A stretch of 64,000 nucleotides of DNA from an uncultured Armatimonadetes bacterium (GTDB lineage Bacteria; Armatimonadota; Hebobacteria; Hebobacterales; Hebobacteraceae), in contig OY970296.1 in NCBI GenBank assembly GCA_963716175.1, forward strand, positions 452,031 to 516,030, written 5' to 3'. Positions within the stretch are counted from its first letter, which is position 1; each line of letters starts with the position of its first letter. The notes under the pieces are model-generated. The model made no database searches. It saw nothing but the letters and a program-made list of their open reading frames with translations, and was not told the DNA's origin. Shown here piece by piece: positions 4,381-23,005 of the stretch. The translations under genes were made by a program, and so were the position numbers.

Positions 4381-5316
4381 TTGAGCACAGCCATTGCCAT
4401 GAAGGAAATTGTCGAAGTCTGGCGCTACCGCGAGGTGCTGTGGAACCTGGTGCGCCGCAACCTCAAGGTGCGCTATAAGAACTCCATCCTCGGCTTCCTC
4501 TGGTCTCTCCTTAACCCCCTGATGCAGATCGGGGTCTGGTGGTTCGTCTTCAAGATCATCCTGGATAACCCCGAGCCCAACTACATGGCCTTGCTGATCA
4601 CGGGTTTCTTGCCCTGGCTCTTCTTCTCCCAGACCGTGCTCGACAGCACCGCCTGCGTCACCCAGGAGATGGCGCTGGTGAAGAAGGCCTACTTCCCCCG
4701 CATGGTCCTGCCGCTGTCGGCCTTGTTCTCCAACCTGATCCATCTCGGGCTGGCCTTCGTGGTGCTGCTGGCGCTCTTCGCCGTCTGGCGGGTCGACATC
4801 AACATCAGCTATTTCCTGATCATCCCGGCCACCCTCCTGGTCGCGGTCTTCGCCTATGGCCTGTCGGCGATGCTGGCGGCCTGGAGCGTGTTCTACGCGG
4901 ATGTGAAGTTCATCATCGGTAACCTGCTGGGGCTCTGGTTCTTCCTGACGCCGGTGCTGTACTCGGCGTCCGGTTTGCTCGCCCGGCAGGCCATCTCGGG
5001 ACGGGAGCTGAACTGGCTCCAGCGCCTGATCCAGGCCGGACTGCCGGTGATCAAACAGGTCTACCTCGTGGACCCGGTGACCATTGGCGTGCTCGGGTAC
5101 CGCAGCGGGCTGCTCTACGGCGGCGGAAATCCCCTCCTGGTGCGCGCCGGAGCCACCAGGACCGAGGAGGCGGCGCGTCTGCTGCAGGCCCAGCTCCAGG
5201 CCCAATATCCCATCGGCCACTACATCATCGGGGCCACCATCGTGGCGGTGCTGGTGGCGATCGTCGGCCACCTGATCTTTCGGCGCCTCTCCCACCTCTT
5301 CGCGGAGCGAGGCTGA
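4381..5316 (+). CDS. ABC-2 type polysaccharide/polyol-phosphate export permease (Wzm/TagG-like)
   Basis: Signature RRNLKVRYKNSILGFLWSLLNPLMQIGVWWFVFKII plus six TM helices. Immediately followed by the cognate ATPase. TTG start in track; the alternative ATG is at 4399. Confidence 0.85.
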   Translation: MSTAIAMKEIVEVWRYREVLWNLVRRNLKVRYKNSILGFLWSLLNPLMQIGVWWFVFKIILDNPEPNYMALLITGFLPWLFFSQTVLDSTACVTQEMALVKKAYFPRMVLPLSALFSNLIHLGLAFVVLLALFAVWRVDINISYFLIIPATLLVAVFAYGLSAMLAAWSVFYADVKFIIGNLLGLWFFLTPVLYSASGLLARQAISGRELNWLQRLIQAGLPVIKQVYLVDPVTIGVLGYRSGLLYGGGNPLLVRAGATRTEEAARLLQAQLQAQYPIGHYIIGATIVAVLVAIVGHLIFRRLSHLFAERG

Positions 5317-5324
5317 ACCCTGCC

Positions 5325-6104
5325 GTGAGCGGAATCGAAATCCGAGACCTATGGAAGCAGTACCGCCGCCCTCATCAGCGGGTGAGCACGCTGAAGGAGG
5401 CGATCGTCGCCTTCCTCCGGGGCCAGACGGGCTATGAGGAGTTCTGGGCGCTGAAGAGCATCTCTTTCACCGTGGACGCAGGAGAGGCAGTGGGCGTGGT
5501 GGGGCCCAACGGGTCCGGCAAGAGCACGCTGCTGGCGCTGATGGCCGGTGTGCTCACTCCCACCCGGGGCACGGTGAAAGTGGGAGGGCGCATCTGCCCC
5601 ATGCTGGAGCTGGGCACCGGGTTCCATCCCGACCTGACGGGCCGGGAGAACGTGTTTCTCAACGCCAGCCTGCTGGGTCTGAGCCGCCGGGAGACGGCTC
5701 GCCGCTATCATGCCATCGTGGACTTCGCGGAGCTGGGCGAGTTCATGGACGCGCCGGTGAGGACCTATTCCAGCGGCATGGTGGTGCGGCTCGGGTTCTC
5801 CGTGGCGATGCACCTCGACCCGGACGTGCTGCTGATTGACGAGGTGCTGAGCGTGGGGGACGAGCACTTCCGGCACAAGTCCTTCGAGCGGCTGGTGCGC
5901 TTCAAACAGGAGGGCAAGACCATCTTCGTGGTCTCCCATGATCTCGGGTCGGTGGAGCGACTCTGCGCGCGCGCGATCTGGCTGGACCACGGCCACATGG
6001 TCATGGACAGCCCCAGTGCCCAGGTGGTCCGGAAGTACCGAACCGCGGTGGAGGAGAGCGAGCGCGCGGCGGAGGCCGGGTCTCCCCATGCCCGCCTGGT
6101 CTGA
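5325..6104 (+). CDS. ABC transporter ATP-binding protein (Wzt/TagH-like, short form without a C-terminal carbohydrate-binding domain)
   Basis: Walker A GPNGSGKST, signature SSGMVVRLGFS and Walker B VLLIDEVLSVGD. GTG start 8 nt after the permease stop. Confidence 0.9.
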   Translation: MSGIEIRDLWKQYRRPHQRVSTLKEAIVAFLRGQTGYEEFWALKSISFTVDAGEAVGVVGPNGSGKSTLLALMAGVLTPTRGTVKVGGRICPMLELGTGFHPDLTGRENVFLNASLLGLSRRETARRYHAIVDFAELGEFMDAPVRTYSSGMVVRLGFSVAMHLDPDVLLIDEVLSVGDEHFRHKSFERLVRFKQEGKTIFVVSHDLGSVERLCARAIWLDHGHMVMDSPSAQVVRKYRTAVEESERAAEAGSPHARLV

Positions 6105-7533
6105 GCTCATCCGGACGGCCGGAAACGTCTTCCTCACCCCAGTCGCGCTCTCCGACCTGCCCGGCCGGGAGACCTGGAGGCGCGCGCTGGTGGTGGGGTC
6201 GGGAGAGCCGGCCAGCATTGCCCAGGCCGCCCAGGCGCTGCGCAGGGCCTGCCCTGCGCTCCTGGTGGATCCGCCGGGTCCCCCGCGGCTGTGGCGAATC
6301 CACCGACGCCGCTACGATGTCGTCTGCCTGCTCCTCACCGGCGAGGGGAGACGCAGGGAAAAGCTGGCGGGACTGCTTTCCGGGGCCCGTGTGGCTCTGG
6401 CCTGCAACCGGAGCGGCCGGTGGTACCAGGTCCACCGGCCGGCCTTCCGGCCGCTCAACCTGCGTTGGTGGGCCCGCCTGGTGCTGGCCGGCATGCTGTC
6501 CGGGTGCTACCTGCGGGTGATGCTGTGGGCTCGCGCCTGCGATCTGCTGTGGCGCTTCGGCCCCATGCCGGCGCCGATTCCGGATCCAGGACCCCCGGTG
6601 GGGCGAGGGACCACTTTCATCGTGCCCACCTACAACCAGCGCCACCTGATGGACTTCTGCTTGCCAGCCCTGGTGGCCGAGGCGGGCCGTCAGCACGAGG
6701 TAATGGTAGTAGATGACGCCAGTGCCGATGGCACGGCCGAGTACGTGCGCAAGCAATACCCGCGCGTGCGCGTGCTCCGGCTGGCGCGCAACCAGGGCTT
6801 CGCGGGGGCGGTGCGAGCCGGCATTGCAGCCAGCCGGACGCCGCTCTTCGCCTTGATCAACACCGATGTGCAGGTGCGGCCCGGGTTCCTGAAAGCGATC
6901 CTGCCGCACTTCGCGCGCGAGGACACCTTCGCGGTGTGCTCCCGTATCGAGCTGCCTGGCGGCTCGCAGATGGAGACCGGCAACGTGGCTCCCGCCTTCT
7001 CAGGAATACTGGAACCCTATCATCTGCCTCCCGATCGCCCCGGCCCGATCCTCTATGCCGGTGGGGCCTCATCGGTCTTCCACCGCGCCCGCTATCAGGC
7101 GCTGGGCGGATTCGAGACCATCTACCGGCCCATCTACTGGGAAGACATTGAACTGGGATACCGCGCCTGGCGGCGCGGGTGGCGTTCGCTCTTCGAGCCC
7201 GGGGCGTCGGTGTGGCATGAGCGCCGCGCGTGGGTCGGCCAGCGACTGGGCGATGTCCAGGCCAACGAGACCTTCCTGAAGAACGGCCTGCTCTTCGTCT
7301 GGAAGAACATACGAGACCGGGGGATGCTATCCCAGCACTGGGTCTACGTCTGTGCCAGGCTCTACCGGGAGGTGCTGGCCGGGGAGCGAATGATGTGCTA
7401 CGCGCTGCTGCGGGCGCTGCCGCTGCTGCCCGCCGCGCTGATCAGGCGGTGGCGAGGGCGACATCGCGGCGACCTGATGGACCGCGACATCCTCGCCCTG
7501 GCCACGCCCTCGCAGGAGCGCCACGGGCCGTGA
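6088..7533 (+). CDS. Family 2 glycosyltransferase with an N-terminal GT9-N-like module
   Basis: GT-A motifs TTFIVPTYNQRH and VVDDASADGT. Start taken at the ATG (6088) overlapping the ATPase stop; the track ORF begins further upstream in the same frame. The N-terminal ~170 aa form the recurring module described in findings. Confidence 0.8.
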   Translation: MPAWSELIRTAGNVFLTPVALSDLPGRETWRRALVVGSGEPASIAQAAQALRRACPALLVDPPGPPRLWRIHRRRYDVVCLLLTGEGRRREKLAGLLSGARVALACNRSGRWYQVHRPAFRPLNLRWWARLVLAGMLSGCYLRVMLWARACDLLWRFGPMPAPIPDPGPPVGRGTTFIVPTYNQRHLMDFCLPALVAEAGRQHEVMVVDDASADGTAEYVRKQYPRVRVLRLARNQGFAGAVRAGIAASRTPLFALINTDVQVRPGFLKAILPHFAREDTFAVCSRIELPGGSQMETGNVAPAFSGILEPYHLPPDRPGPILYAGGASSVFHRARYQALGGFETIYRPIYWEDIELGYRAWRRGWRSLFEPGASVWHERRAWVGQRLGDVQANETFLKNGLLFVWKNIRDRGMLSQHWVYVCARLYREVLAGERMMCYALLRALPLLPAALIRRWRGRHRGDLMDRDILALATPSQERHGP

Positions 7534-9260
7534 GGATCCTTTTCGTCAGCCCCTTCCTCCCCTATCCGCCCACGGCTGGCGGCCACGCGCTGATCTGGGG
7601 CTGGCTGCGGCGCCTTGCCAGCAAGCACGAGATCGCGTTCGTGGGATTCTGCGAGCGAGAGGCGGACGCGGTGGGCGCCGACGAGGTGGCGAAGCACTGC
7701 GCCAGCATGCGAATACGTCTCCGCCGGCCGACGCCGCATGCCTACAGCTCCTTCGCGCAGGTCCCCCGATGGGTGAGCGAGTTCTTCTCGGCAGAGCTAG
7801 CAAGTGACCTGCGCGCGCTGGCGCGAGATTTCAGGCCGGAGGTGGCGCAGTTTCTGAGCACCAACATGGCGCAGTATGCGCGCGCGGTTGATGCCGCGCA
7901 TGTCATCACCGCGGTTGACGTCTCTTTTGTCGCCCATCGTAGGCGGATCGCAGCCGCGCGCGGACTCGAGCGTCTCCAGGCCCGGCTGGAGTGGCTGCGC
8001 ATGCTGCGCTATGAGGCGTCCGTCTTTCGCCGCGCCGATCACGTGATCGCAATGTCGCTCCGAGATGCAGAGATCATCAGGGCCGTCTCGCCTCGGGTGC
8101 CGAGCACCATCGTGCCTCCCGGCGTGGACCGGGAACTGCTCGCGCCCCGGCCGCGCCGGCCGGGGCCAGGCAGAGTGCTCTACCTGGGCCAGATGGAGCA
8201 CTTCCCCAACCTCGATGGTCTGCTCTTCCTCTATCGAGAGATCTGGCCCCGGGTTCGGCGCGCTCATCCAGAAGCTCGTCTCACCGTGGCCGGCCGCGGC
8301 GCGCGGGAGGAGCTGGCGCGCGTCGCGCCGCAGACCCTCGCTGCCATGGAGAGCGACCAGAGTGTGGACCTGGCGGGATTCGTGCCCGACCTCCAGGCGA
8401 CCATGGATCTCACCGCGGTCATGGCCGCGCCCCTGCGACTGGGATCGGGCGTGCGCACCAAGGTGATCGAGGCGATGGCCGCGGGGCTGCCGGTGGTGAC
8501 AACCACCCGGGGCGCGGAGGGCCTGGCGGTTGCGCACGAACGCGAGCTGCTCATCGCGGACGAGCCAGAGCAGTTCGCGCGGGAGCTGGTGCGCCTGCTC
8601 CGAGATCCGGAGCTGCAGGCGCGACTCTCCCGGGCCGGCCGCGAGCTGGCAGCTCGCGAGCATGACAACGATCAACTGGCGGCGCGGCTGGAGCGGGCCT
8701 TGATGGCAGCGGCAGGGTCTGCAGGGCGGGCACGTCTCGCATGCCCGCCGCAGGACGGCGAGGCGCGGGAGATGAGAGTCCTGATCCGATACCTCGCCGG
8801 CTATGTCTTCGACTTCTTCCGGGAGCGGGTGACCGCTGACGATTTCCGCGGCGAGCGCGTGCGCCGCGTCCTGGCGACGGCCGCGCTGGATGCGCGCGGC
8901 CAGGCTGCGGTGCGGTGCATGTTCCCGCAGGCCGTCCTGTATGCCGTCACTGCTCGCGCCAGCCTGGCCCAGGTTCGCCGGGGTCGGTTCGAGGCGAGCT
9001 GCATCTCCATGGCCGGCGGCGGCATGCGAGAGCGCTTGCTGGCTCTGCTCAGCGGCGCCCGGCACCAGCTGCTCATCCCTTCGCCGGACTACATCTACCG
9101 TCTGGGCATGCGGCAGGGAGGCCCGGCCCTCGCCTGGGCGGTGATAGACCGCTTCCTGGTCGCACCTGTCGCTCTGATGTGGTTCATCCTACTGGTTTGC
9201 TGGCTCTATGTGAGCGGATTGGTTGAGCGGACCGCGCAGCCAAAGGCGCAGGGAGGGTAG
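7530..9260 (+). CDS. Family 4 (GT-B) glycosyltransferase with a C-terminal GT9-N-like module and a TM helix
   Basis: VRILFVSPFLPYPPTAGGHA N-terminus and an EX7E-type motif IEAMAAGLPVVTTTRGAEGL. GTGA overlap with the upstream stop. The C-terminal 160 aa are the module plus the hydrophobic helix PVALMWFILLVCWLYVSGL. Confidence 0.8.
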   Translation: MRILFVSPFLPYPPTAGGHALIWGWLRRLASKHEIAFVGFCEREADAVGADEVAKHCASMRIRLRRPTPHAYSSFAQVPRWVSEFFSAELASDLRALARDFRPEVAQFLSTNMAQYARAVDAAHVITAVDVSFVAHRRRIAAARGLERLQARLEWLRMLRYEASVFRRADHVIAMSLRDAEIIRAVSPRVPSTIVPPGVDRELLAPRPRRPGPGRVLYLGQMEHFPNLDGLLFLYREIWPRVRRAHPEARLTVAGRGAREELARVAPQTLAAMESDQSVDLAGFVPDLQATMDLTAVMAAPLRLGSGVRTKVIEAMAAGLPVVTTTRGAEGLAVAHERELLIADEPEQFARELVRLLRDPELQARLSRAGRELAAREHDNDQLAARLERALMAAAGSAGRARLACPPQDGEAREMRVLIRYLAGYVFDFFRERVTADDFRGERVRRVLATAALDARGQAAVRCMFPQAVLYAVTARASLAQVRRGRFEASCISMAGGGMRERLLALLSGARHQLLIPSPDYIYRLGMRQGGPALAWAVIDRFLVAPVALMWFILLVCWLYVSGLVERTAQPKAQGG

Positions 9261-11895
9261 ATGGGCCGCCAGAAACAATGGCGCGGGGACCAGGGTTGAT
9301 GCCGTGAGCCATATCCTTATCTGCGGCGCGGCGGGCTATACCAATCTGGGCGATGATGCCATCCTCTGGGGGATGCTCACTCAGCTGCGGCCAGCGGTCG
9401 GGGGCCGTGCCATCAGGGTGGCCGGGGGCCCAGGGCTGGCGCCGCTGCTGACCCTATTCGGGGCTGCGCCCGTCTCCTACATGGACCGCCCGGAGCTGGC
9501 CCGCGCCGTCGAGGAGGCCGGCCTGGTCATCCTCGGGGGCGGCGGGATGCTGTACGATGTGGATTACGAAGCCAGCCTCGCTCGGTTCTTCGGCGACCCG
9601 GCCGATCGTCCCTGGCTCTATGAGCTCGCCCAGATCGCAGCCGCAGCGCGGGTCGCGGCACGGCCGTTGATGCTGTATGGGATGGGAGCAGGCCCACTGG
9701 TGACAGAGGCGGCGCGGCGGGCGGCGCGGTTCGTCGCAGAGCAAGCCTCGGTGGTCACTGTCCGCGACGCCGGCTCGGCTGATCTGCTGGCGGAATGCGG
9801 CGTGCCGCGGGCCCACGTCCAGGTCGCTGGTGACCCGGCCCTGGCCGTGGCTCCCGGATCGGCGGAGAGCGCGGAGAGCTTCCTCAGGGCCACCGGCATC
9901 GCCGCCCGTCCCAGGCCCTGGATCGCGCTGAACCTGAGGCCGTTGGTGGCGGGCATGGGCATGCCCGCCCTACAGGAGGCACAGCTCGTTGCCCGGGCCG
10001 CAGAGCTGGTGCGCCGGCTCACCGACCGGCTCGCCGCCACGGTGGTGCTGATGCCATTCCAGCGAACCAGACACGATGACCGGGAGGTCCTGGGCGCGGC
10101 GCTGGAGGCGGCCGGGAAGCCCGCTAACGCGCTGCTCGTGGCGCCACCCCCTCTGCCGCCCGATCTGGCGGCCGTGCTGGCGCGCTTCGATCTCGTGGTC
10201 GGGATGCGGCTGCACTCTCTGATGCTGGCCATGAACGGGGCCGTGCCCTTCGTCGGGCTCTGCTATGACCCCAAGGTGGCTGAGTTCGCTCGCGAGGCGG
10301 GCCTGGGCGAGTACCTGCATGCCGTTGATGAACTCGACCCGGAATCGGTCGCAGCTTCGTGCCAGCGCCTATTGAGCCGGCGCGCGGAGGCCTCGGGTCT
10401 GCTGGCTCAGCGCAACGAGCAGATGCGGACCGCTGCCGGGCTCTCGGCCGAACTCGCGGCCTGGCTGCTCGCCCGGAGGACCGGGCTCCCACAGGCGCCC
10501 CGCCCCCGCGGCGCGCGGTCTGCGGCCGCACCGCGGCCGGTGAGGCTGCCGCGGGTGCTGATGCAGATCCGGGCCGACTACCAGGACCTCCCAGGCGGCG
10601 ACACGGTGCAGATGACCCAGACCAGGCGCGCCCTGCAGGAGTTGGGGGTAAGGGCGGAGGTGAGCACCGAGGAAGCGCCTGATCTATCAGCATACGATCT
10701 CGTCCACACCTTCAACCTTGGGAGGCCGGGCGAGCCCTACAGGCACTGCCTGAACGCGATGTCACAGGGCAAGCCGGTGGCGCTTTCTACCGTCTACGCC
10801 GACTTTGGGGAGATGTGGGAGTGGGGCGACTCCGATTACTGGGAGCTGCCGCCGCCAGAGGTGGGGCTGCCGGTGCCCAGGAGGGCGCCGCCGGTGGGGC
10901 CAGTCGAGGCCCGCCGCCGGATGCGCTTGGAAGAGCAGCGGCAGGCCGCCATTGACTGGGCGACGGTCTATCTGCCGAATGGGCAGGGGGAGGCTGACTG
11001 GCTGCACGCCGCCCATGGTATGGACCTGAGCCGGACCGTGGTGGTGCCAAACGCGGTCGCGGACATCTTCTTCGACGCGCGGCCGGAGGCATTCGTGGCC
11101 CGCTGCGGGCTGCGGGATTTCGTCCTATGCGCAGCGCGGGTGGAGAAGCGTAAGAACCAGCTCAGTCTGGTGGCTGCCTTGCGAGGGACCGGCCTGCCTC
11201 TGGTGATCCTGGGGTGGGCGAACCCGGAGGCCTACCGCGATCTCTGCCGCCGCTATGCAGACGAGAATGTGCGGTTTATTGACGGGCTGGCCCACGAGGA
11301 GCTGCCTTCGGCCTACGCCGCGGCCAGGGTGCACGTGCTCGCCGGTTGGTTCGAGACCCCCGGCCTCTCCACCCTGGAGGCGGCCGCCGCCGGCTGCAAT
11401 GTCGTGTCCACCGACCGGGGGCTGGCGCGGGAGTACTTCGGCGACCTGGCCTGGTACTGCGACCCGGGCCGCATCGAGTCCATCCGGGAGGCGGTGCTGG
11501 CCGCCTACCAGGCCCCCCGGTCTGACCGCTTGCGGGACCACGTGTGCCAGCACTACACCTGGCGGCATGCCGCAGAGCGAACGCTGGAGGCCTATCAGCT
11601 CGCACTCGCCCTGCACCAGAGCGGAAGCGATCGCGATCGGCAGCCCGAGCTGCTGGCCGCCGCCCGGCGGCACGCGGACTGGCTGGCGCGGCTGGCCGCC
11701 GACCGTCAGTACGAGGCCGACCAGTTGCGCCAATGGGCCTCCGATTTGGACACGCGCAGGAAGGACCTGGAGGCGGAGGTGCAGCGGCTGCAGCGGGAGC
11801 TGGAACTGGTGACCTCGCGGCGGCTGTATCGGTGGTCGGAATCGGTGGGTCGTGCGGGCTGGGGCCTGCTTCGCGCTCTGAGGATCAAGCGGTGA
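9223..11895 (+). CDS. Polysaccharide pyruvyl transferase (CsaB/WcaK-like) fused to a GT4 glycosyltransferase, with a coiled coil and a conserved C-terminal tail
   Basis: N-terminal HILICGAAGYTNLGDDAILWGML resembles the PS_pyruv_trans signature. The C-terminal half carries GT-B motifs (RVEKRKNQLSLV ... ETPGLSTLEAAAAGCNVVSTD). The start may instead be the GTG near 9304. Confidence 0.8.
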   Translation: MSGPRSQRRREGRWAARNNGAGTRVDAVSHILICGAAGYTNLGDDAILWGMLTQLRPAVGGRAIRVAGGPGLAPLLTLFGAAPVSYMDRPELARAVEEAGLVILGGGGMLYDVDYEASLARFFGDPADRPWLYELAQIAAAARVAARPLMLYGMGAGPLVTEAARRAARFVAEQASVVTVRDAGSADLLAECGVPRAHVQVAGDPALAVAPGSAESAESFLRATGIAARPRPWIALNLRPLVAGMGMPALQEAQLVARAAELVRRLTDRLAATVVLMPFQRTRHDDREVLGAALEAAGKPANALLVAPPPLPPDLAAVLARFDLVVGMRLHSLMLAMNGAVPFVGLCYDPKVAEFAREAGLGEYLHAVDELDPESVAASCQRLLSRRAEASGLLAQRNEQMRTAAGLSAELAAWLLARRTGLPQAPRPRGARSAAAPRPVRLPRVLMQIRADYQDLPGGDTVQMTQTRRALQELGVRAEVSTEEAPDLSAYDLVHTFNLGRPGEPYRHCLNAMSQGKPVALSTVYADFGEMWEWGDSDYWELPPPEVGLPVPRRAPPVGPVEARRRMRLEEQRQAAIDWATVYLPNGQGEADWLHAAHGMDLSRTVVVPNAVADIFFDARPEAFVARCGLRDFVLCAARVEKRKNQLSLVAALRGTGLPLVILGWANPEAYRDLCRRYADENVRFIDGLAHEELPSAYAAARVHVLAGWFETPGLSTLEAAAAGCNVVSTDRGLAREYFGDLAWYCDPGRIESIREAVLAAYQAPRSDRLRDHVCQHYTWRHAAERTLEAYQLALALHQSGSDRDRQPELLAAARRHADWLARLAADRQYEADQLRQWASDLDTRRKDLEAEVQRLQRELELVTSRRLYRWSESVGRAGWGLLRALRIKR

Positions 11896-12968
11896 GACTG
11901 ACTGTCATCATCCCCACCTACAATCGCAGCGCGCTCCTGGGTAGGGCGCTGCGCCTGCTGCTGGATGAGCAGACCGCCGCGCCCAGCGACTACGAGCTTG
12001 TCGTGGTGGACGACGGCTCGACCGACGGCACCCCCGAGGTGGTCAAGGCCGTTGGCGCGCCGGAGTCGCGCCTGCGGTATTTCCGCCAGGAGAACCAGGG
12101 CCCGGCGGCGGCGCGCAACCTGGGCGTGCGAGAGGCGAAGGGCAAGATCGTCCTCTTCACCGGGGATGATTGCCTGCCCGACCGGCGGCTGATCGAGGAG
12201 CACCTGCGGGCGCATGATCGGAGCGGGGACGTGGGCGTGGTGGGGCATGTCGCCTGGCACCCCGACCTGGAGCTGACGCCGCTGATGCTCTTCCTCGATC
12301 AGGGAGCGCAGTTCGGGTTCGGGTACATCAACGACCCTGATCATGTGAGCGCCTGGTCGTTCTACACCGCCAACTGCTCGGTGCAGCGCCATTGGATCGA
12401 GGAGGTGGGTGGGTTCGACGAGGACTTCGAGAATGCGGCCTACGAGGACATCGAGCTGGCTTACCGCATGCAGCAGCGGGGCCTGCGTATCATCTACCAT
12501 CGCCCTGCGCTCACCTATCACCACCACGCGCCCACCCTGGAGGGACACCTGGTGCGCCAGCGTCTCTGCGGCCGGTCCTCGGTGATCTTCTGGCGCAAGC
12601 ATCCGGAGCTGAAGGAGGAGCTGGACATCGTCGAGGCGCAGCGACCCAGATATGCCCTTCAGTTCTTCGAGGCCGTGGGCGCCTATGCCAAGGCGCTGGG
12701 GGTGAGAGAGGTGCTGCGGCAGCAGATCCTGCTCAGGGAACAGGGCCAGGAGGCCGAGGGTGGCCCTGCCCCGGACCCCCAGGCCTGGGTGAGGGAGGCC
12801 CTGGGCACGGCCGACCCTGACAGAGAAGAGCTGATCCGTCTGCGGGCCGAACTCCGGGATATGGAGCAGGAGTGGCAGCGCGTCACCTCTCGCCGCCTCT
12901 ACCGATGGTCGGAAGCGGGGGCGCGGGCCGGGTGGAGCTTCCTGCGGCGGCTGGGGATCAGACCATGA
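11892..12968 (+). CDS. Family 2 glycosyltransferase (paralogue 1) with a coiled coil and a conserved C-terminal tail
   Basis: VRLTVIIPTYNRS and VVVDDGSTDGT (GT-A). GTGA overlap. Ends with the shared tail motif (see findings). Confidence 0.85.
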   Translation: MRLTVIIPTYNRSALLGRALRLLLDEQTAAPSDYELVVVDDGSTDGTPEVVKAVGAPESRLRYFRQENQGPAAARNLGVREAKGKIVLFTGDDCLPDRRLIEEHLRAHDRSGDVGVVGHVAWHPDLELTPLMLFLDQGAQFGFGYINDPDHVSAWSFYTANCSVQRHWIEEVGGFDEDFENAAYEDIELAYRMQQRGLRIIYHRPALTYHHHAPTLEGHLVRQRLCGRSSVIFWRKHPELKEELDIVEAQRPRYALQFFEAVGAYAKALGVREVLRQQILLREQGQEAEGGPAPDPQAWVREALGTADPDREELIRLRAELRDMEQEWQRVTSRRLYRWSEAGARAGWSFLRRLGIRP

Positions 12969-15783: not shown

Positions 15784-16845
15784 ATGCGCGTTCTGGTTAC
15801 TGGGATTGCAGGCTTCATCGGCAGCCACGTGGCCGAGGGACTGGTCGCGGCCGGACACGAGGTGGTGGGGATAGACGATCTCGCCGGCGGGTTCAAGCGC
15901 AACGTGCCCGCCCAGGCGAAGTTCCTCCGGCTCGATCTGCGCGATGCCGCTGAGACCGAGCGCGTGGTGAGCGAGCATCCGGCGGACGTGCTCTGTCACC
16001 TGGCCGCCAATGCCCGCGAGGGCGCCTCTCAGTTCCAGCCCCGGGATGTCTGCGGCCGGAACCTGATGGCCTACGTCAATGTGCTGGTGCCGGCCATGCG
16101 CGGCGGAATGAAGAAGGTGGTGCTCTACAGCTCGATGGCGGTCTACGGCGATCAGCAGGCGCCCTTTGATGAGACTATGCCGCGCCAGCCGGTGGACATC
16201 TACGGGGTGAACAAGGCGGCAATGGAGGAGATCACCGGGATTCTGGCGGAGGTGCACGATTTCTCCTATACCATCATCCGCCCACACAACGTCTTCGGCG
16301 AGCGGCAGAGCCTGCGAGATCGCTTCCGTAATGTGGTGGCCATCTTCATGAATCGCATCATGCGGGGCGAACCGCTGTATATCTATGGAGACGGAGAGCA
16401 GACCCGGGCTTTTAGCTACATCGCGGACTCCCTGCCCGCCTTCCTGGCCGCGGTCGAGCTGCGGCCCGAGCTCGACCGGCAGGCCATCAACGTGGGTGGG
16501 AGAAAGGCGGTGAGTGTCAACGACTTGGTGCGGCTCGTGTGCGCCGCCTTCGGGGCCAAACCGGAGGTGGTGCACCTGCCCGACCGGCCTCGGGAAGTGA
16601 GGAACGCCTACTGCACCTGGCAGAAGTCCGAGGCGCTGCTGAACTACCAGGAGCACTACGATCTGGAGCAGGCGATTGGCCGCATGGCGCAGTGGGCCAG
16701 GATGATAGGGCCACAGCCCTGGAGCGAAGAGGAGCTGGAGCTGCCCAGCGCGAAGGCGCCTGTCATCTGGATGAGCGACGACCCGCCAGGCGAGATCACC
16801 AGCAGGCCCGCCACGCCGCCGGCGGGCAAGCCCGATAGCCCGTGA
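15784..16845 (+). CDS. NAD-dependent epimerase/dehydratase (SDR family, UDP-sugar epimerase-like)
   Basis: MRVLVTGIAGFIGSHV Rossmann motif, catalytic YxxxK region (SMAVYGD...YGVNKAAME), Pro-rich tail. Confidence 0.85.
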   Translation: MRVLVTGIAGFIGSHVAEGLVAAGHEVVGIDDLAGGFKRNVPAQAKFLRLDLRDAAETERVVSEHPADVLCHLAANAREGASQFQPRDVCGRNLMAYVNVLVPAMRGGMKKVVLYSSMAVYGDQQAPFDETMPRQPVDIYGVNKAAMEEITGILAEVHDFSYTIIRPHNVFGERQSLRDRFRNVVAIFMNRIMRGEPLYIYGDGEQTRAFSYIADSLPAFLAAVELRPELDRQAINVGGRKAVSVNDLVRLVCAAFGAKPEVVHLPDRPREVRNAYCTWQKSEALLNYQEHYDLEQAIGRMAQWARMIGPQPWSEEELELPSAKAPVIWMSDDPPGEITSRPATPPAGKPDSP

Positions 16846-19775
16846 GCGCTCCCCGTGCCAGCCTGATCATCTCCACCTGGAATGGCCGACACCTGTTGGA
16901 GACGTGTCTGCCGCGGGTGCTGCGCGCGGTAGAGCAGGCGGGTGGCGACCACGAAGTGATCGTGGTGGACGACGCCAGCTCCAATGACACGGTGGAGTTC
17001 GTCCGGCGCGAGTTCCCCCAGGTCCGGCTGTTGGCCCTGCGGCGCAACCTACGATTCGCGGGGGCGAACAACGCCGCCGCCCGGGCCGCCAGGGGCGAGG
17101 TCCTGGTCTTCCTGAACAACGACATGCTGGTCGAGCCGGACTGCCTGGAACCCTTGCTGCGCCACTTCCAGGATCTCACCGTGTTCGCGGTCACCGCCCA
17201 GATCGAGATGACGCCGCGGCGAGTGGCCGGGGAGGTGATCCGGGAGACGGGACTGGTGAGGGCGAGATTCGAGGACGGGCTGTTCGTGCTGCAGCACGAG
17301 GACGCGACCTCGCAGGAGCCGGTGCGCGTGATCTACGCGGGGGGCGGCTCCAGCGCCTGGCGGCGGGAGGTCTTCTTCGGACTCGGCGCATTCGGCCGCC
17401 TCTTTCGGCCTTTCTACTTCGAGGATCTCGATCTCTCCTACCGGGCCCAGAAGGCGGGGTGGAAAGTGCTCTTCGAGCCCGCCAGCCGCATGACCCACCA
17501 GCACAGACAGACCAATGCCCCGCGGAACTTCCCCGGCGGCTACGTGGACTTGATCTTCGGCAAGAATGGCCTGCTCTTCACGTGGAAGGCACTCACCGAT
17601 CCTGACCTGCTGAGCGCTCATTTCCGGGGGCTCTGGCGCAGGCTGATGCGCTCCCGCGCACACCCGCGGCTGGGGGCCTGCTTCCTGCGCGCGGCGGCCC
17701 AGTTGCCCGAGCTATTAGTGAAACGCCAGCAGGCACGAGCGCAGATGGCGCTCTCCGACAAGGAGGTGCTGCGGCTGGGCGCCAGCCCCCCGCCGCCGGA
17801 GGCGGCCGACGGCGGCGAGCTGCCATATGGCTCTGACGGCACCGGCAAGCGCCTGCTGGTGATCGGGTTCTCGCCCCTGCCCTTCGAGCCCGAGCTCCGG
17901 CTGGGTGCGCTCTGCTTCCGCACCTGGCATCTGGCGCAGGCGTTACTGGCAGAAGGGCACGAGGTGACGGTGGTGGGAGTTCGGATGGCCGCGGCTTACC
18001 GGGAAGAGGCGCAGCGTCCCTCGGTGCTGCGGTTCCGGGGCCGGCACTTCACCTACTACTCGGCCACGCACGCCGCCTTTGAGCCCTCCCCGCGGCCGGC
18101 GGGCAAGGGCAGTGACCTGCTCTCGCGCATCTGCGACCAGTGGCAGCCTGATGGGATCGTCGCCGTCCACGCCTACGGGGCCTGGGCGGCCTCGCGGCTC
18201 AAGACCGGGGCGCCGCTGTGGGCCGACCTGACCGGCTACGCGATGGCGGAAGCCCAGGCGCGCGCGGGCCTGGAGGGCAGCGACGCTCCCATGGCCGAGG
18301 CCTGGCAGCAGGAGCGGGCCGCCCTGGCGCGGGCCGACGTGTTCTCTGTGGTCACGCAGCGCCAGAAGTACGCGCTGATCGGCGAGCTCTTCGCCATCGG
18401 GCGACTGGGAGCCGCGAACTGCGGCGAAGACCGTGTCCATGATATTCCGCTCGCCATCGAGAACCTGCCCTATCGTCATCGGCAGGTGGTGCTGCGAGGG
18501 AAGCTGGTGGGAGAGGACGACTTCGTGATCCTGTGGGCCGGGGGCTACAACACCTGGACGGATGTAGACACGCTCTTCCAGGGGCTGACCGCGGCGATGC
18601 GGCAGCATCCTGGCATCAGGTTCGTTTCCCTGGGGGGCGCGCTGCCGGGTCGGGATGAGCAGACCTTCTATCGCTTTCGCCAGCAGGTCGAGGAAAGCGA
18701 GCTGAGCGGCCGCTTCGTCTTCACCGGCTGGGTGCCCAACGAGGAGGTGCCCAACTACTACTTCGAGAGTGATGTCGGGATCAACATTGATCGCTTCAGC
18801 TACGAGATGCTGATCGGGTGCCGCTACCGCATCCTCGACATGCTGCGCGCCGGGCTGCCGGTGATCACCACCCTGGGCACCGAGATCAGTCACATCGTGC
18901 GCGAGGAGCGGCTGGGTCTGACCTTTGCACCAGGAGACGCGCAAGGCCTGAAAGAGGCCATCCTGACACTGGCGCGAGACGAGGCGCTGCGGCGGCGCTG
19001 CGCCTACCGCGCCAAGGAGCATGTTTTCAGGCACCGCACGGTGGACCAGGTGATGGGGCCTCTGCGGCAATGGGCGCAGGCACCGGAGCGGTCCGCGGAT
19101 CGGATGCCTGTTGCGGCCGAGGCGGCGGGCGACGAGGCCCCGCGCTCTCTCCGCCTGCGAGAGCTGGCGCGATCAGTCACCGCCGGGCTGGCCGATATCG
19201 CGGCCCAGGCCTGGGTTCGGCGGCGCGGTACGCACGCCTGGGGGCTGGACCCGCGAGAGCCCCCACACGCGGTGCTGGTGATCCGGGCCGGGTCTCTCCT
19301 CCTGGTCCGGGAAGTGGTGGCGCGCCTCCGCGCACGCTACCCCGCAGCCGCGACCACGGTGCTGGCTCCCGAGGCCCTGACTGCGGAGACCGCCTACGAG
19401 ACCGGTGCCCGCGTGATCTCCGCGCCCGGCGCGGGGATGGTGAGCTATCGGGTCAGCAGGGCCGCCATCGGCCGGGTGCGGCAAGGAAGGTTCGACACCG
19501 TGGTGGTGGCCGGCGAGGGCAACCGGAGAGCCGAGCTGCTCGCGCTGCTCGCGGGTCCCGCGCGGCGAGTCGAGGTGCGAGACGATGGCGCCGCCCATGT
19601 CTTCTCGTTCGCCGCTTACAAGCCACTCGTCGTGCTGGCCATAGCCATCGCCAGCCTGCTGGAGAAGATCACGCTCACCGCGCTGGTGGGCCTGGTATGG
19701 GGAAGCATCCAACTGGAAGGGCGGCTGTGGAGGTTCCGCCAGCGGCGGGGCGCATCCACGCGCGCCACGCGGTGA
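16842..19775 (+). CDS. Tandem GT2-GT4 fusion glycosyltransferase (977 aa) with a C-terminal GT9-N-like module and a TM helix
   Basis: N-terminal GT-A (LIISTWNGRHLL, VVDDASSNDT); central GT-B (KRLLVIGFSPLPFE ... GLPVITTLGTE); C-terminal module HAVLVIRAGSLLLV...RQGRFDTVVVAGEGN...LLALLAGPARRV; hydrophobic helix VVLAIAIASLLEKITLTALVGLVWG. GTGA overlap with the epimerase stop. Confidence 0.8.
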   Translation: MSAPRASLIISTWNGRHLLETCLPRVLRAVEQAGGDHEVIVVDDASSNDTVEFVRREFPQVRLLALRRNLRFAGANNAAARAARGEVLVFLNNDMLVEPDCLEPLLRHFQDLTVFAVTAQIEMTPRRVAGEVIRETGLVRARFEDGLFVLQHEDATSQEPVRVIYAGGGSSAWRREVFFGLGAFGRLFRPFYFEDLDLSYRAQKAGWKVLFEPASRMTHQHRQTNAPRNFPGGYVDLIFGKNGLLFTWKALTDPDLLSAHFRGLWRRLMRSRAHPRLGACFLRAAAQLPELLVKRQQARAQMALSDKEVLRLGASPPPPEAADGGELPYGSDGTGKRLLVIGFSPLPFEPELRLGALCFRTWHLAQALLAEGHEVTVVGVRMAAAYREEAQRPSVLRFRGRHFTYYSATHAAFEPSPRPAGKGSDLLSRICDQWQPDGIVAVHAYGAWAASRLKTGAPLWADLTGYAMAEAQARAGLEGSDAPMAEAWQQERAALARADVFSVVTQRQKYALIGELFAIGRLGAANCGEDRVHDIPLAIENLPYRHRQVVLRGKLVGEDDFVILWAGGYNTWTDVDTLFQGLTAAMRQHPGIRFVSLGGALPGRDEQTFYRFRQQVEESELSGRFVFTGWVPNEEVPNYYFESDVGINIDRFSYEMLIGCRYRILDMLRAGLPVITTLGTEISHIVREERLGLTFAPGDAQGLKEAILTLARDEALRRRCAYRAKEHVFRHRTVDQVMGPLRQWAQAPERSADRMPVAAEAAGDEAPRSLRLRELARSVTAGLADIAAQAWVRRRGTHAWGLDPREPPHAVLVIRAGSLLLVREVVARLRARYPAAATTVLAPEALTAETAYETGARVISAPGAGMVSYRVSRAAIGRVRQGRFDTVVVAGEGNRRAELLALLAGPARRVEVRDDGAAHVFSFAAYKPLVVLAIAIASLLEKITLTALVGLVWGSIQLEGRLWRFRQRRGASTRATR

Positions 19776-19787
19776 GGACGGAGACCG

Positions 19788-20423
19788 ATGGCGCGGCCCG
19801 CGGTGTTTCTCGATCGCGACGGCACCGTGCTGCGCGAGCGCGATTACCTGACATCCGCGCACGAGATGCGGCTGCTGCCAGGGGCAGGAGCTGCGATCCG
19901 CCGGCTGAATGAGGCCGGCTTTGCGGTGGTGGTGATCACGAACCAGTCGGGGATCGCGCGGGGTCTGCTGAGCGAGCGCGACCTCGACCACATGCACCAG
20001 GTCCTGCGCCGGCGACTCGCGCGCTCGGGTGCACAGCTCGACGGCATTTACTACTGCCCCCATCATCCCGAGGCGCCGCTCCGGCGGTATCGCCGCCGCT
20101 GCGGCTGCCGCAAACCGGCGCCCGGCCTGCTACGCCGGGCAGCGCGGGAGCTGAACCTCGATCTCCCACGCTCCTTCGCCATCGGCGACAGCCCACGCGA
20201 CCTGGAGGCAGGGCGGCGCGCCGGTTGCCGCGCGATCCTGGTGCGCACGGGCTATGGCATGCTCACCGAGACCACCGTGAATGCCAGGGCCTTCGACCAC
20301 GTGGCGGACGACCTGCCCGCGGCCGTCACTTGGGTACTGGCGCAGAGGCGGCGGGCATGCAGAGACATGCCCACCCTACAGGAGAGGCAAAGGCGCACAC
20401 AGGCCCCATGCAAGCGACCCTGA
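19788..20423 (+). CDS. gmhB: D-glycero-D-manno-heptose 1,7-bisphosphate phosphatase (HAD-IIIA, GmhB-like)
   Basis: FLDRDGTV, VVVITNQSGIARG and the CxH...C...C zinc-binding insert (YYCPHHPEAPLRRYRRRCGCRKP) match the GmhB/histidinol-phosphatase-like family. Confidence 0.8.
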   Translation: MARPAVFLDRDGTVLRERDYLTSAHEMRLLPGAGAAIRRLNEAGFAVVVITNQSGIARGLLSERDLDHMHQVLRRRLARSGAQLDGIYYCPHHPEAPLRRYRRRCGCRKPAPGLLRRAARELNLDLPRSFAIGDSPRDLEAGRRAGCRAILVRTGYGMLTETTVNARAFDHVADDLPAAVTWVLAQRRRACRDMPTLQERQRRTQAPCKRP

Positions 20424-21349
20424 TCGTGGTCAACTACAATGGGCGGGAGCTGCTGGTGAAATCCGTGCCCGCGGCCCTCGAGGCCGCGCGCCAGGCCGGC
20501 GGTCACCGCGTCGTGGTGGCCAATGACGGCAGCACGGATGACAGCCTCCACTATCTGCCTACCACTCACCCGGAGGTGGATGTGCTCGCCCTTCCCCACC
20601 GCGGCTTCGGCGCCACCTGCAACGCGGCCGTGGCGGCCGCGCAGACAGATGCCGTCCTGCTGCTGAACAGCGATGTCGTGGTCGCCCCGGATTTCCTGCC
20701 GCCCCTGCTTGAGGACCTGACGGGGCGTGATGTCTTCGCGGTCGGAGGCAAGTTCCTCAATCCGGATGGCTCGTTGACCGACGCCCTGGGCAATCGCACC
20801 TCGTGCCAGTGGCGCCGCGGCCTGCCCTACATCCACCACGAGACCGACCCCGCGCTGCTCGCAGCAACTTGTCCCCAGCTCTATGCCAATGGCGCCATGA
20901 TGGCCTTCTGGCGAGATAAGTGGCTCGCGCTCGGCGGCTTCGATCCCCTCTATCGGCCGTTCTACTGGGAGGATGCCGATCTGGGCTATCGCGCCTGGGG
21001 ACGTGGCTGGCGCGTGCTCTACGAACCGGCGAGCGTGGTCTTCCATGCCCAGGGCAGCACCATGAGGCGGACTCACCAGGTTCGCCACATCGAGCTGATG
21101 TCCGCCAAGAACGCCATCCTCTTCACCTGGAAGAATCTGCTCGATCCCGGCTTGCTGCGGCGCGCCCTGGCCGCTCAGGCCCGGTGGGCCGCGGATGACG
21201 TGCTGATCGGAGGCCTGCCGCCCCGCACCCGCGCTTTGCTGTGCGCCTCGCGCCAGCTCGCCGAGGCGGCCCGGGGCCGGGCCCGGGAAGCCCGCGAGCG
21301 CAGGCGCGCCGATTGGGAAATCCTGGCTGCCAGCGGAGCTGATCGGTGA
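20408..21349 (+). CDS. Family 2 glycosyltransferase
   Basis: MQATLIVVNYNGRELL, VVANDGSTDDS and the FYWEDADLGYRA region. Start at the internal ATG overlapping the gmhB 3' end by ~16 nt. Confidence 0.8.
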   Translation: MQATLIVVNYNGRELLVKSVPAALEAARQAGGHRVVVANDGSTDDSLHYLPTTHPEVDVLALPHRGFGATCNAAVAAAQTDAVLLLNSDVVVAPDFLPPLLEDLTGRDVFAVGGKFLNPDGSLTDALGNRTSCQWRRGLPYIHHETDPALLAATCPQLYANGAMMAFWRDKWLALGGFDPLYRPFYWEDADLGYRAWGRGWRVLYEPASVVFHAQGSTMRRTHQVRHIELMSAKNAILFTWKNLLDPGLLRRALAAQARWAADDVLIGGLPPRTRALLCASRQLAEAARGRAREARERRRADWEILAASGADR

Positions 21350-21855
21350 ACGCGCGGGGGCCCACGATACTGCTCTTGACGTTCGCGCGGCAGGGCGAGG
21401 AGGGTGCCATCCGGGGAGCGTTGGCATGGCTCAGCCAGCAAGCGCCCGGGGCCGAGTTCGTCGCGGTCGGGACTCCCGTGTCCGCTCCTGTTCTCAACCG
21501 CCTCGGCCTGACAGATGTGATCATCTTCGGGGACGGGGCCTCCACGCGGCAAGTGGTGGGAGAGGCAAGGGCGCGGCGGCCCAAGATCACCGCCATTGTC
21601 TACGGCGGCCCTGGCAGCAGCGCCCATCTCAAGCTGGAGCTGGTGGCCCTGGGCGCGGCCGCGCCGGTCACCTATCGGTTCGTGCCCGACACACCGCCGC
21701 GGCCAATCGGCAGATGGGCGCTGCTCGCGTCGGTCGCGACCAAAGCGCTGTCGGCGGCAGGCCGCCTGGTCGTGGGGTGCGTGATCTGCGGGATCGCGCT
21801 CTGCCGGCTGCGCCTGGCGCAGCTCCTGACGGGAGGGCAGCATGCGCGTGGCTAG
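21346..21855 (+). CDS. Stand-alone GT9-N-like module protein with a C-terminal TM helix (169 aa)
   Basis: PTILLLTFARQGEEGAIRGALAWLSQQAPGAEFVAV...RRPKITAIVYGGPGSS...LELVALGAAAPV, then GRLVVGCVICGIALC. GTGA overlap with the preceding stop. Confidence 0.6.
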   Translation: MNARGPTILLLTFARQGEEGAIRGALAWLSQQAPGAEFVAVGTPVSAPVLNRLGLTDVIIFGDGASTRQVVGEARARRPKITAIVYGGPGSSAHLKLELVALGAAAPVTYRFVPDTPPRPIGRWALLASVATKALSAAGRLVVGCVICGIALCRLRLAQLLTGGQHARG

Positions 21856-23005
21856 GTCTTGCCGCCACGGCGGCCCGAAGGGCCTAGCCGTCGGCCTTGA
21901 TGCCCGCACCCTGGCCTCCGAGGTGCACTCCGGGGTAGAAGAGTACGTGATCAACCTGGTGAGCGCGCTGTCGCGCCTGACCGAGGCCCCGGAGATCATC
22001 GCCTATGTTGACCGCCCGATCCCTGACCCCGAGACTGCGGAGGCCGCTTCCTCCGGACCGCTGCGAACCAGCATCGTGCGGGCCCGCCGCGGCTGGCTGC
22101 GAGCCGCTCTCCCCTGGCGGCTATGGCGAGACCGGGTGAACCTGGTGCACCTCCCCAGCACCATCCTGCCGCCGCTCCTTCCCTGTCCGGCCGTGGTGAC
22201 AGTCCACGATCTGGCCTGGGTGCGATACCCAGAGACCTATGAACCCAAAGACCTGGTGATGCAGCGACGGGCGGTAGCCGGGGCCGCGGCGCGGGCCGGT
22301 CACATCATCGCGGTCTCGGACGCCACCGCGCGCGATCTGCGCCAGCACTATCCGCGGTCCGGGGACAGAGTCTCGGTCATCCCTCTCGGCGTCTCGCCCC
22401 GATTCTCGCCAGACGGGCCGCGGCTGAGCACCGCAGCCTTCCCGGGCGCGGAGCGGCTCACCCGCGGCTATGTCCTCTACGCCGGCGGGCTGCAGCCCAG
22501 GAAGAATGTCCTGCGTCTCCTGGTGGCCTACGAGAAGGTGCTGGCCGAGACGTCGGCGCCGCCGCTAGTGCTGGCCGGGGCCGTCTCCCCCCACGCGCAC
22601 GAGCTGCGGCAGGCTTCCCAGAGGCTCGGGATCGAGCGCCACGTGGTCTTCCCGGGCTATGTGGCCCAGGACCTGCTGCCGGCCCTCTACCGCAGCGCGA
22701 CCGTGTTCGTCTATCCCTCGCTCTACGAGGGCTTTGGGCTCCCCGTGCTGGAGGCGATGGCCTGCGGCGTCCCGGTCGTCACCTCGAACGTGTCCGCCCT
22801 GCCCGAGGTGGCCGGGGAGGCGGCGCTGCTGGTGGACCCAGAGAGCGTGGAGCGGCTCTCGTGGGCGGTTTCGCTGCTGCTGGCGGACCAGGCGCTGCGC
22901 CAGACCCTGGGCCAGCGCGGCCCGGCGCGCGCCCGGCAGTTCACCTGGGAGCAGACCGCGCGCCAGACCGTGGGAGTCTACCAGCGGTTTGCGGCAGAAG
23001 AATAG
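21842..23005 (+). CDS. Family 4 (GT-B) glycosyltransferase; last gene of the operon
   Basis: C-terminal GT4 signature GYVLYAGGLQPRKNV ... SLYEGFGLPVLEAMACGVPVVTSN. Confidence 0.85.
   Translation: MRVARSCRHGGPKGLAVGLDARTLASEVHSGVEEYVINLVSALSRLTEAPEIIAYVDRPIPDPETAEAASSGPLRTSIVRARRGWLRAALPWRLWRDRVNLVHLPSTILPPLLPCPAVVTVHDLAWVRYPETYEPKDLVMQRRAVAGAAARAGHIIAVSDATARDLRQHYPRSGDRVSVIPLGVSPRFSPDGPRLSTAAFPGAERLTRGYVLYAGGLQPRKNVLRLLVAYEKVLAETSAPPLVLAGAVSPHAHELRQASQRLGIERHVVFPGYVAQDLLPALYRSATVFVYPSLYEGFGLPVLEAMACGVPVVTSNVSALPEVAGEAALLVDPESVERLSWAVSLLLADQALRQTLGQRGPARARQFTWEQTARQTVGVYQRFAAEE

Follow-up and report, generated by a model that had tools for sequence, protein, structure and literature searches.

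How does a member of the Armatimonadota, a phylum for which, to our knowledge, almost no experimental cell-envelope data exist, assemble and export the glycans of its surface? The question is raised by a gene cluster on contig OY970296.1 of an uncultured Armatimonadetes bacterium, located at positions 4381-23005 of a stretch of 64,000 nucleotides that was analysed as a whole and is called the window below. The cluster consists of 14 open reading frames (ORFs), here numbered g1 to g14, that follow one another in an unbroken run on the + strand. A sequence-only reading of this DNA had proposed glycan assembly of the Wzm/Wzt type, dependent on a transporter of the ATP-binding cassette (ABC) kind, with nine glycosyltransferase (GT) genes and a pyruvylated, possibly heptose-containing product. 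In diderm Terrabacteria, tethering of the outer membrane has been proposed to depend on pyruvylated wall polymers (bioRxiv 10.1101/2021.05.31.446380), the biosynthesis and export routes of which are unresolved (PMC6801904). With its deep conservation and its CsaB-like pyruvyltransferase, the locus is a concrete candidate pathway for such a polymer.

The best explanation of the locus, to which as a whole a probability of about 0.6 is assigned, is that of a native Armatimonadota operon that is transcribed from one sigma-70-type promoter, is largely coupled in translation and would direct the intracellular synthesis of a glycan and its export by an ABC transporter. In kind, it is an ordinary, common ABC-transporter-dependent polysaccharide gene cluster. 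What the analysis adds is its conservation across a clade of the Armatimonadota, the fusion of a CsaB-like enzyme to a family 4 GT (GT4) in a Wzm/Wzt setting, and an undescribed membrane-anchored module.

Gene content, coupling and conservation of the operon

The domains of the products were judged by Pfam gathering scores, NCBIfam equivalog cut-offs and sequence matches in the PDB. Thirteen of the 14 products lie above the Pfam gathering scores, the exception being g13, and the domain inventory of the sequence-only reading was upheld, including the GT domains, which clear the thresholds of their hidden Markov models. Export is represented by the first two genes. g1 (4381-5316, starting at TTG 4381 or ATG 4399) encodes a Wzm-type ABC-2 permease (PF01061, 45.3 bits) with several hydrophobic segments, the only polytopic membrane protein among the 14 products, and g2 (5325-6104) encodes a Wzt/TagH-type ATPase (PF00005, 75.2 bits). 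The ATPase fold fills all 259 residues of g2, which is thus indeed short and devoid of a C-terminal carbohydrate-binding module; its orthologues have 238-240 residues (238 in L004, one of the related loci, which are designated by L numbers). The adjacency of the permease and ATPase genes within a GT cluster supports the Wzm/Wzt assignment. The Wzx flippase and Wzy polymerase families found no match among the 14 products, and wherever a homologous locus extends as far as the 5' end of the operon, it has Wzm/Wzt rather than a Wzx/Wzy partner.

The best NCBIfam match of g1 is the galactan export permease Wzm/RfbD and those of g2 are TagH and the galactan Wzt/RfbE ATPase, which recalls the mycobacterial galactan system (GlfT1/GlfT2, Wzm/Wzt Rv3781/Rv3783) and wall teichoic acid exported by TagGH. 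Both are conserved polymers that are linked to peptidoglycan and that non-proteobacterial lineages produce by the ABC route. However, the scores are far below the cut-offs (60 versus 380 bits for g1, 184-214 versus 320-538 bits for g2) and the operon has no GlfT, Glf or TagF-type enzymes.

Ten GT domains are distributed over nine proteins. Family 2 (GT2) is represented by g3 (6088-7533, aa 177-287), g6 (11892-12968, EpsD-like), its tandem paralogue g7 (12965-14062, 60% identity), g8 (14062-15702, aa 1-324) and g12 (20408-21349, a paralogue of the GT2 domains in g3 and g10), and GT4 by g4 (7530-9260, aa 1-396) and g14 (21842-23005). To these are added the pyruvyltransferase-GT4 fusion g5 (9304-11895) and g10 (16842-19775), a protein of 977 residues with a GT2 and a GT4 domain. 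The matches of g10 in the PDB are merely generic GT2/GT4 hits (chondroitin polymerase, E 5.5e-10), so that no sugar specificity can be assigned to it, and for none of the GTs is the sugar specificity readable from sequence. As a dual GT2-GT4 protein, g10 appears to be the likeliest candidate for a repeat-unit polymerase. The remaining enzymes are g9 (15784-16845), a short-chain dehydrogenase/reductase (SDR) that resembles UDP-hexose 4-epimerases, with GalE-type epimerases as its best PDB matches (4zrm, 153 bits) and a score below the GalE equivalog cut-off, and g11 (19788-20423), a GmhB-type phosphatase of the haloacid dehalogenase group HAD-IIIA. The sequence-only reading had counted 16 genes, and its own list sums to 13, since g13 (21346-21855, 169 aa, without a Pfam match) was left out; the number 16 is reached only if two downstream genes (23024-23644 and 23634-25811), both beyond 4381-23005, are included.

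Directly 5' of g1, at positions 4338-4367 of the + strand, lies the sequence TTGACG-18-TGcTATAAT, a sigma-70-type promoter with an extended -10 element that matches the hexamers in 11 of 12 positions and has the additional TG. In five of seven other loci, the motif TTGAC-N17/18-TGnTATAAT stands equally far from the start of g1; all seven have the TGnTATAAT -10 element in front of the g1 orthologue. Within the 20 kb, signals of internal promoters or terminators did not exceed the shuffled expectation. The genes do run in one direction, and all nine start/stop overlaps that had been named are present: GTGA at 7530/7533, 11892/11895, 16842/16845 and 21346/21349, ATGA at 12965/12968, TAATG at 14062, and longer overlaps of 17 nt (6088/6104), 16 nt (20408/20423) and 14 nt (21842/21855), all on the + strand. 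They account for nine of the 13 junctions, the other four being gaps of 8, 43, 81 and 12 nt. A relative at 58% identity, whose genes were called independently, has junctions of these same types. The GC content is approximately 67% across the window, and the operon stretch between 4 and 23 kb is compositionally like its flanks. Judged by its sequence, the operon fits an ABC-transporter-dependent pathway in content, order and promoter.

For comparisons of synteny, Chloroflexota, Actinomycetota and Deinococcota had been suggested, but the relatives belong to the Armatimonadota, among them members of Candidatus Hebobacteria, a class of that phylum. Homologues of the g5 fusion form approximately 60 clusters at 52-66% identity, all with the same two-domain architecture, and those that carry a source name are labelled as Armatimonadota. 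A scan of species-representative genomes with g5 yielded 11 loci with a full or partial orthologue, from metagenome-assembled genomes of Armatimonadota and Candidatus Hebobacteria and from some further ones labelled only as uncultured or as Bacillota. About 12 species-level genomes keep the order of the operon, with proteins that are 55-75% identical in amino acids. It begins with Wzm, Wzt, a module-GT2 protein, GT4, in most relatives a module-module-radical S-adenosylmethionine (SAM)/SPASM protein, and the pyruvyltransferase-GT4 fusion, and continues with GT2, GT2, module, SDR, GT2-GT4-module, GmhB, GT2, module, GT4 and a gene for an extracytoplasmic function (ECF) sigma factor. L004, L006-L016, L022 and L023 show this arrangement, which extends from Wzm through to GT4 and in most cases has the ECF sigma gene after it, and L004 (GCA_040961635.1) also has the upstream nitroreductase and MoxR flank in common with the window.

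Superimposed on this order are differences between lineages. The tandem pair g6/g7, a duplicated GT2 gene, occurs only in the lineage of the window. In most relatives, a protein of 652 residues that combines two modules with a radical SAM/SPASM core is encoded between g4 and g5 (8046-10004 in L004; also in L006, L007, L009, L010, L013, L015 and L022); it matches generic SPASM maturase families only. The radical-SAM core is absent from the window and from L023, L008 and L016, and the module at the C-terminus of g4 corresponds to the first domain of the relatives' protein. The g4 module, which had escaped the sequence-only reading, is interpreted as the remnant of a lost radical-SAM gene. Its fusion to g4 hinges on one extra G in the GGG run at 8767-8769. 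L023, at 98.2% nucleotide identity, has GG there (~4182) and encodes a 414-residue GT4 followed by a 162-residue module ORF with an ATGA overlap; the extra G may reflect true polymorphism or have arisen as an error of assembly. The 546-residue fusion g8 was also called on an independent metagenome contig (L001). With the radical-SAM gene or gmhB lost, GT2 duplicated and the modules either fused or separate, these variants provide a natural comparative series by which genes might be linked to glycan structure.

Predicted pyruvylation and possible nature of the polymer

The evidence for pyruvylation resides in g5, which most likely starts with GTG at 9304, as in its orthologues, and not with TTG at 9223. 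In the AlphaFold model (predicted local distance difference test, pLDDT, 86), a pyruvyltransferase domain (aa 1-394) is joined by a disordered linker (~aa 393-412) to a GT-B domain of the GT4 family (aa 417-773), which is followed by two long C-terminal helices (aa 776-810 and 813-858). The N-terminal domain matches PF04230 (PS_pyruv_trans) with 103.8 bits relative to a cut-off of 25.3, and 22 orthologues show no variation at residues N14, G16, D17, R154, S158 and H304. These residues belong to the NxGD, RxxxS/T and His motifs that have been defined for glycan pyruvyltransferases (PMC10629545). With these catalytic motifs invariant, pyruvylation by the operon is plausible, as the sequence-only reading had supposed. 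Among the NCBIfam families, CsaB (TIGR03609) is the best match, with 143.2 bits, and WcaK reaches only 44 bits. A comparison of the domain with PDB sequences gave nothing meaningful, not even a match to WbbZ (6x1l) or Pvg1p (5ax7), and therefore did not distinguish between the CsaB, WbbZ and WcfO clades.

The last approximately 40 residues of g5, g6 and g7 (11770-11895, 12840-12968 and 13935-14062) have the motif TSRRLYRWSE..GW..LR.LG in common. This tail, which had not been recognized before, is also present in the orthologues of each of the three proteins, its residues are invariant among the g5 orthologues, and in the g5 model it comes after the long helices. It may be a shared membrane-binding or oligomerization element.

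What kind of polymer might be pyruvylated? The conservation of gene order and flanking genes across deeply diverged species makes a core envelope polymer the most likely product. The favoured candidate is a secondary cell-wall polymer, pyruvylated and associated with peptidoglycan, to which the S-layer homology (SLH) domains of OmpM-type outer-membrane tethers possibly bind. OmpM homologues have been reported in Armatimonadetes, and CsaB and SLH domains co-occur across the diderm Terrabacteria (bioRxiv 10.1101/2021.05.31.446380). A wall polymer is preferred to an O-antigen because of the synteny at 55-75% identity, CsaB being the closest family, and the reported OmpM. With the CsaB/SLH system of Paenibacillus alvei, Bacillus anthracis, Thermus thermophilus and cyanobacteria the operon would share pyruvylation of a lipid-linked intermediate, in addition to CsaB as the best family of the N-terminal domain of g5. 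It differs in that g5 falls below the equivalog cut-off and is fused to GT4, in the lack of TagA, TagO and MnaA genes, and in its explicit Wzm/Wzt route, whereas the export route in the model organisms is unresolved (PMC6801904).

A lipopolysaccharide (LPS) O-polysaccharide exported by Wzm/Wzt, in which pyruvate would be a non-reducing terminal cap or epitope and a WaaL encoded elsewhere would ligate the chain to lipid A-core, is considered unlikely, notwithstanding a precedent. In Klebsiella pneumoniae O1b, a pyruvyltransferase acts within a Wzm/Wzt pathway without a carbohydrate-binding module (PMC10629545). The O1/O2a system (Wzm-Wzt, WbbM/WbbY, WbbZ) resembles the operon in cytoplasmic assembly, multidomain GTs, an exporter ATPase without such a module, a phosphoenolpyruvate (PEP)-dependent pyruvyltransferase with NxGD/RxxxS/H motifs, and a priming enzyme encoded outside the locus. 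The pyruvyltransferase of the operon is, however, fused to GT4 and nearer to CsaB than to WcaK or to WbbZ, with which it has no sequence match, and the operon carries transmembrane modules that distantly resemble the N-terminal half of GT9 enzymes and resides in an Armatimonadota host. The architecture of g5 also recalls coiled-coil chain terminators such as WbdD, in which catalytic domains at the N-terminus are followed by long helices. Like WbdA/WbdD of E. coli O9a, the operon combines a multidomain polymerase candidate with such a modifying enzyme, and the g5 helices (aa 776-858) could associate with the membrane and set the distance from it. Yet the helical region of g5 is short (~80 aa), the same tail is found on two ordinary GT2 enzymes, the modification would be pyruvate rather than methyl phosphate, and Wzt lacks the carbohydrate-binding module, so that capping and export would be uncoupled. 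The gene order argues against an O-antigen. O-antigen loci are normally hypervariable, and the Klebsiella locus is serotype-variable, whereas here the order is conserved in about 12 species representatives that share 55-75% protein identity, together with the upstream flank in L004. Nor does the window contain WaaL, lipid A or core genes.

GmhB would suit LPS-type sugars, and g11 is of the GmhB type. It scores 185.8 bits with NF006506 (cut-off 178) and 142.1 bits with TIGR00213, below the cut-off of 149.6, and the motifs DRDGT (DxDxT) and TNQSGIARG and the zinc motif CPHHP...CxCRKP align with those of E. coli GmhB (3l8e). A HisB-type phosphatase was ruled out by the match of 66.5 bits to HisB (2fpr) compared with 134.6 bits to 3l8e. 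As had been stated before, gmhA and hldE are absent from the window; no GmhA, HldE/HddA/HddC or heptosyltransferase is encoded in the 64 kb. Two candidates were examined and rejected: the SIS protein encoded at 55926-57437 is a member of the AgaS family rather than GmhA, and the PfkB kinase at 58103-59056 is ribokinase-like and not HldE (rfaE_dom_I 25.8 versus 345 bits). Moreover, L016 and L022 have no gmhB between g10 and g12, which makes it an accessory gene and heptose at most an optional constituent. Of the pyruvylated, possibly heptose-containing polymer that had been predicted, the pyruvate thus remains plausible, whereas heptose is weakly supported.

Still less likely is a secreted or loosely attached exopolysaccharide (EPS), a capsule or a surface-glycoprotein glycan under envelope-stress control by the adjacent ECF sigma factor. 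Several GTs have EPS-type proteins as their best NCBIfam matches (EpsD, EpsE, PEP-CTERM-associated stp1), and the sigma gene, which is syntenic in relatives, lies directly downstream together with a gene for a membrane protein with a sugar-binding domain. However, all of the EPS-family scores are far below the equivalog cut-offs, neither the operon nor the window contains genes for KpsC/S/D/E, Wza/Wzc, an oligosaccharyltransferase or PEP-CTERM/exosortase, and the promoter in front of the operon is of the sigma-70 type, not of the ECF type.

Several points weigh against a pyruvylated wall polymer made by a single operon. The CsaB score of g5 is below the equivalog cut-off (143.2 versus 213.1 bits). 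The known substrate of CsaB is ManNAc-GlcNAc (N-acetylmannosamine linked to N-acetylglucosamine), which is provided by a GT26 enzyme. Such an enzyme is absent from the operon, and the window has no TagA, TagO or MnaA genes. Among the annotated ORFs of the window there is also no priming phosphoglycosyltransferase of the WecA/TagO or WbaP type, no LytR-CpsA-Psr (LCP) or WaaL ligase, no SLH protein, no OmpM and no gene for ManNAc synthesis; in enterobacterial O-antigen loci, the priming transferase is encoded elsewhere. Since such partner genes are missing in the window, the destination of the polymer is argued from conservation and the literature. The 81-nt gap in front of g9 could hold an unrecognized promoter, and transcription of the operon is a prediction from sequence. 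In L011 (CP070816.1), the 5' half (Wzm to GT4 and the N-terminus of the radical-SAM protein) is not adjacent to the rest; in positions 1-10000 of L011, TldD/PmbA and methyltransferase genes lie upstream of g5 in its place. Either the locus is truly split there, or the scaffolding has produced an artefact. Finally, the radical-SAM gene, gmhB and the number of GT2 copies are not constant among species, a variability that might be incompatible with a strictly essential polymer.

A recurrent, putatively membrane-anchored module

A domain of approximately 150 residues with a Rossmann-like fold, followed by a transmembrane (TM) helix, occurs in five copies in the operon and had been missed in the sequence-only reading. 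It forms the N-terminus of g3 (~aa 1-175, 6088-6612), the C-termini of g4 (aa 415-576, 8772-9260, an in-frame fusion), g8 (aa 350-546, 15109-15702) and g10 (aa 805-977, 19254-19775), and all of g13. By eye, these regions resemble one another and also both of the N-terminal domains that the radical-SAM protein has in relatives. Their homology was examined by aligning the orthologues of each of six sub-families and comparing profile with profile (hhalign). The sub-families are linked by probabilities of 95-99.5%: 96.8 for g3N-g4C, 95.0 for g3N-g10C, 95.2 for g4C-g8C, 96.4 for g8C-g10C, 95.2 for g8C-g13, 99.5 for g8C-rSAM2 and 97.1 for g10C-rSAM2 (N and C denote the N- and C-terminal modules, rSAM2 a domain of the radical-SAM protein).

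That the modules might be no more than low-complexity linkers rich in Ala, Arg and Leu with hydrophobic tails, similar to each other through high GC, was suggested by the lack of any match in Pfam, NCBIfam or PDB sequences, by a pairwise identity between sub-families of only about 20-25% and by two sub-family pairs with a low hhalign probability. This explanation is largely refuted and is regarded as very improbable. Reversed alignments, which retain the composition, gave hhalign probabilities of at most 1.1%, compared with 95-99.5% for the real ones, and thereby reject a composition artefact. The orthologues of the modules are kept at 40-60% identity across species. The AlphaFold2 model of g13 (pLDDT 88, predicted TM-score, pTM, 0.78) shows a confident, compact fold, an alpha/beta domain of six strands and a long helix (aa 123-161) that coincides with the hydrophobic segment; like segments end the modules of g4, g8 and g10. 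The profile of the module found 87 proteins at E<=1e-3 among 1.84 billion representatives, mostly stand-alone proteins of about 170-190 residues. Ten longer matches were scanned, most of which have partners related to glycan synthesis: in seven the module adjoins GT2, GT4 or methyltransferase domains or a chain of B12/radical-SAM, methyltransferase and GT2, two have no Pfam domain, and in one the match lies on the N-terminus of a GT9-WecG protein. Homologues of g13 form only 30 clusters, all of about 170 residues and unannotated. By these searches the family is rare, undescribed and without a family entry.

With regard to its origin, hhalign aligned the module with the N-terminus of the GT9-WecG protein at 94% probability, and in a Foldseek search with the g13 model WaaF ranked second, with no E-value reaching 0.001. 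A true GT9 enzyme was ruled out: the model contains one alpha/beta domain and a TM helix but no donor-binding half, and PF01075 (GT9) did not match even at E<=5. In both respects the module differs from the GT9 heptosyltransferases WaaC and WaaF (2h1f, 1psw, 3tov). It is taken to be a TM-anchored Rossmann domain, probably derived from the acceptor-side, N-terminal half of a GT-B/GT9 enzyme. It also differs from split GT-B enzymes (Alg14/Alg13, Cps14F/Cps14G) in that it accompanies radical-SAM proteins, methyltransferases or GT-A and GT-B enzymes that are complete without it, so that no missing half is supplied, and in the C-terminal position of its TM helix.

The state of the module varies with its neighbour. 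It is fused to g3 in all ten loci that have both parts and to g10 in all seven loci that have the module; after g12 it is always a separate, overlapping ORF (g13, with a GTGA overlap in the window). After g8 it is a separate ORF in every other locus and fused in the window, and the copy that in relatives normally resides in the radical-SAM protein is fused to g4 in the window. This alternation beside the same enzymes suggests that each module works with the neighbouring enzyme. The simplest reading is that it would anchor or scaffold the neighbouring enzymes at the membrane. A rare domain without a family entry has been exposed, which is found alongside GT2, GT4, radical-SAM and methyltransferase enzymes and has the appearance of one half of a GT-B fold anchored in the membrane.

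The following pathway is proposed. A heteropolysaccharide would be built at the inner membrane, on its cytoplasmic face, with polyprenyl phosphate as the carrier, after priming by a phosphoglycosyltransferase encoded outside the window. The ten GT domains would lengthen the chain, with g10 as the probable polymerase of the repeat unit, while g9 would provide a 4-epimerized UDP-hexose or UDP-N-acetylhexosamine and g11 optionally a heptose. g5 would add one sugar and transfer pyruvate from PEP as a ketal to the lipid-linked glycan, because characterized pyruvyltransferases need lipid-diphosphate-linked acceptors (PMC6801904). The completed chain would leave through Wzm/Wzt, and since Wzt has no carbohydrate-binding module, its export would be independent of the recognition of a cap at the chain end. 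The enzymes g3, g4, g8, g10 and, via g13, g12 would be held at the membrane by the module and its TM helix, and g5, g6 and g7 by their shared helical C-terminal tail. More tentatively, the operon may be the conserved pathway of a class-level clade of the Armatimonadota to a pyruvylated, peptidoglycan-associated polymer, which SLH/OmpM tethers would bind and thereby hold the outer membrane. The enzymes would be lined up at the membrane beside Wzm/Wzt by an undescribed family of TM-anchored adaptor domains, each a half GT-B derived from the N-terminal part of GT9. If this were true, it would be the first genetically defined ABC-transporter-dependent route to the OmpM ligand in diderm Terrabacteria.

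Neighbouring genes in the window

The gene of the SigW-like ECF sigma factor (23024-23644, + strand), whose scores are below equivalog cut-offs, starts 18 nt after g14, and five related loci likewise have it downstream of the operon. It overlaps by 11 nt with the gene of a polytopic membrane protein of 725 residues (23634-25811, + strand), which has a GH2_N-like sugar-binding domain (aa 257-389) and hydrophobic regions at ~aa 229-252 and 517-698. The two genes are possibly co-transcribed with the operon, and their products may, from their predicted domains, form a glycan-sensing regulatory pair.

Further downstream, a separate cluster at 37367-44025 resembles systems for peptide maturation and export and is unrelated to the operon. 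It encodes a radical SAM/SPASM protein (37367-38650, - strand), an HlyD-like protein (39157-40896), a DUF1854 protein and an ABC exporter whose TM and ATPase domains are joined in one protein (41584-44025, - strand). It is followed by the gene of a large DUF6785/DUF6784 membrane protein (44267-46276, - strand), which lies where the AT skew of the window makes its strongest excursion (+0.29, 44-46 kb). The region 55926-63962 encodes, in addition to the AgaS-family sugar isomerase and the ribokinase-like PfkB kinase mentioned above, RmuC, a xylose-isomerase-like TIM-barrel protein and a GH123 glycosidase; by their family assignments, these genes look like a set for the catabolism of amino sugars or glycans and not like the missing heptose genes. 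Closer to the operon, at 26669-28484, two neighbouring ORFs of the Roadblock/LC7 (MglB-like) type lie beside genes for tetratricopeptide repeat proteins, one of which has 757 residues (29360-31633, - strand).

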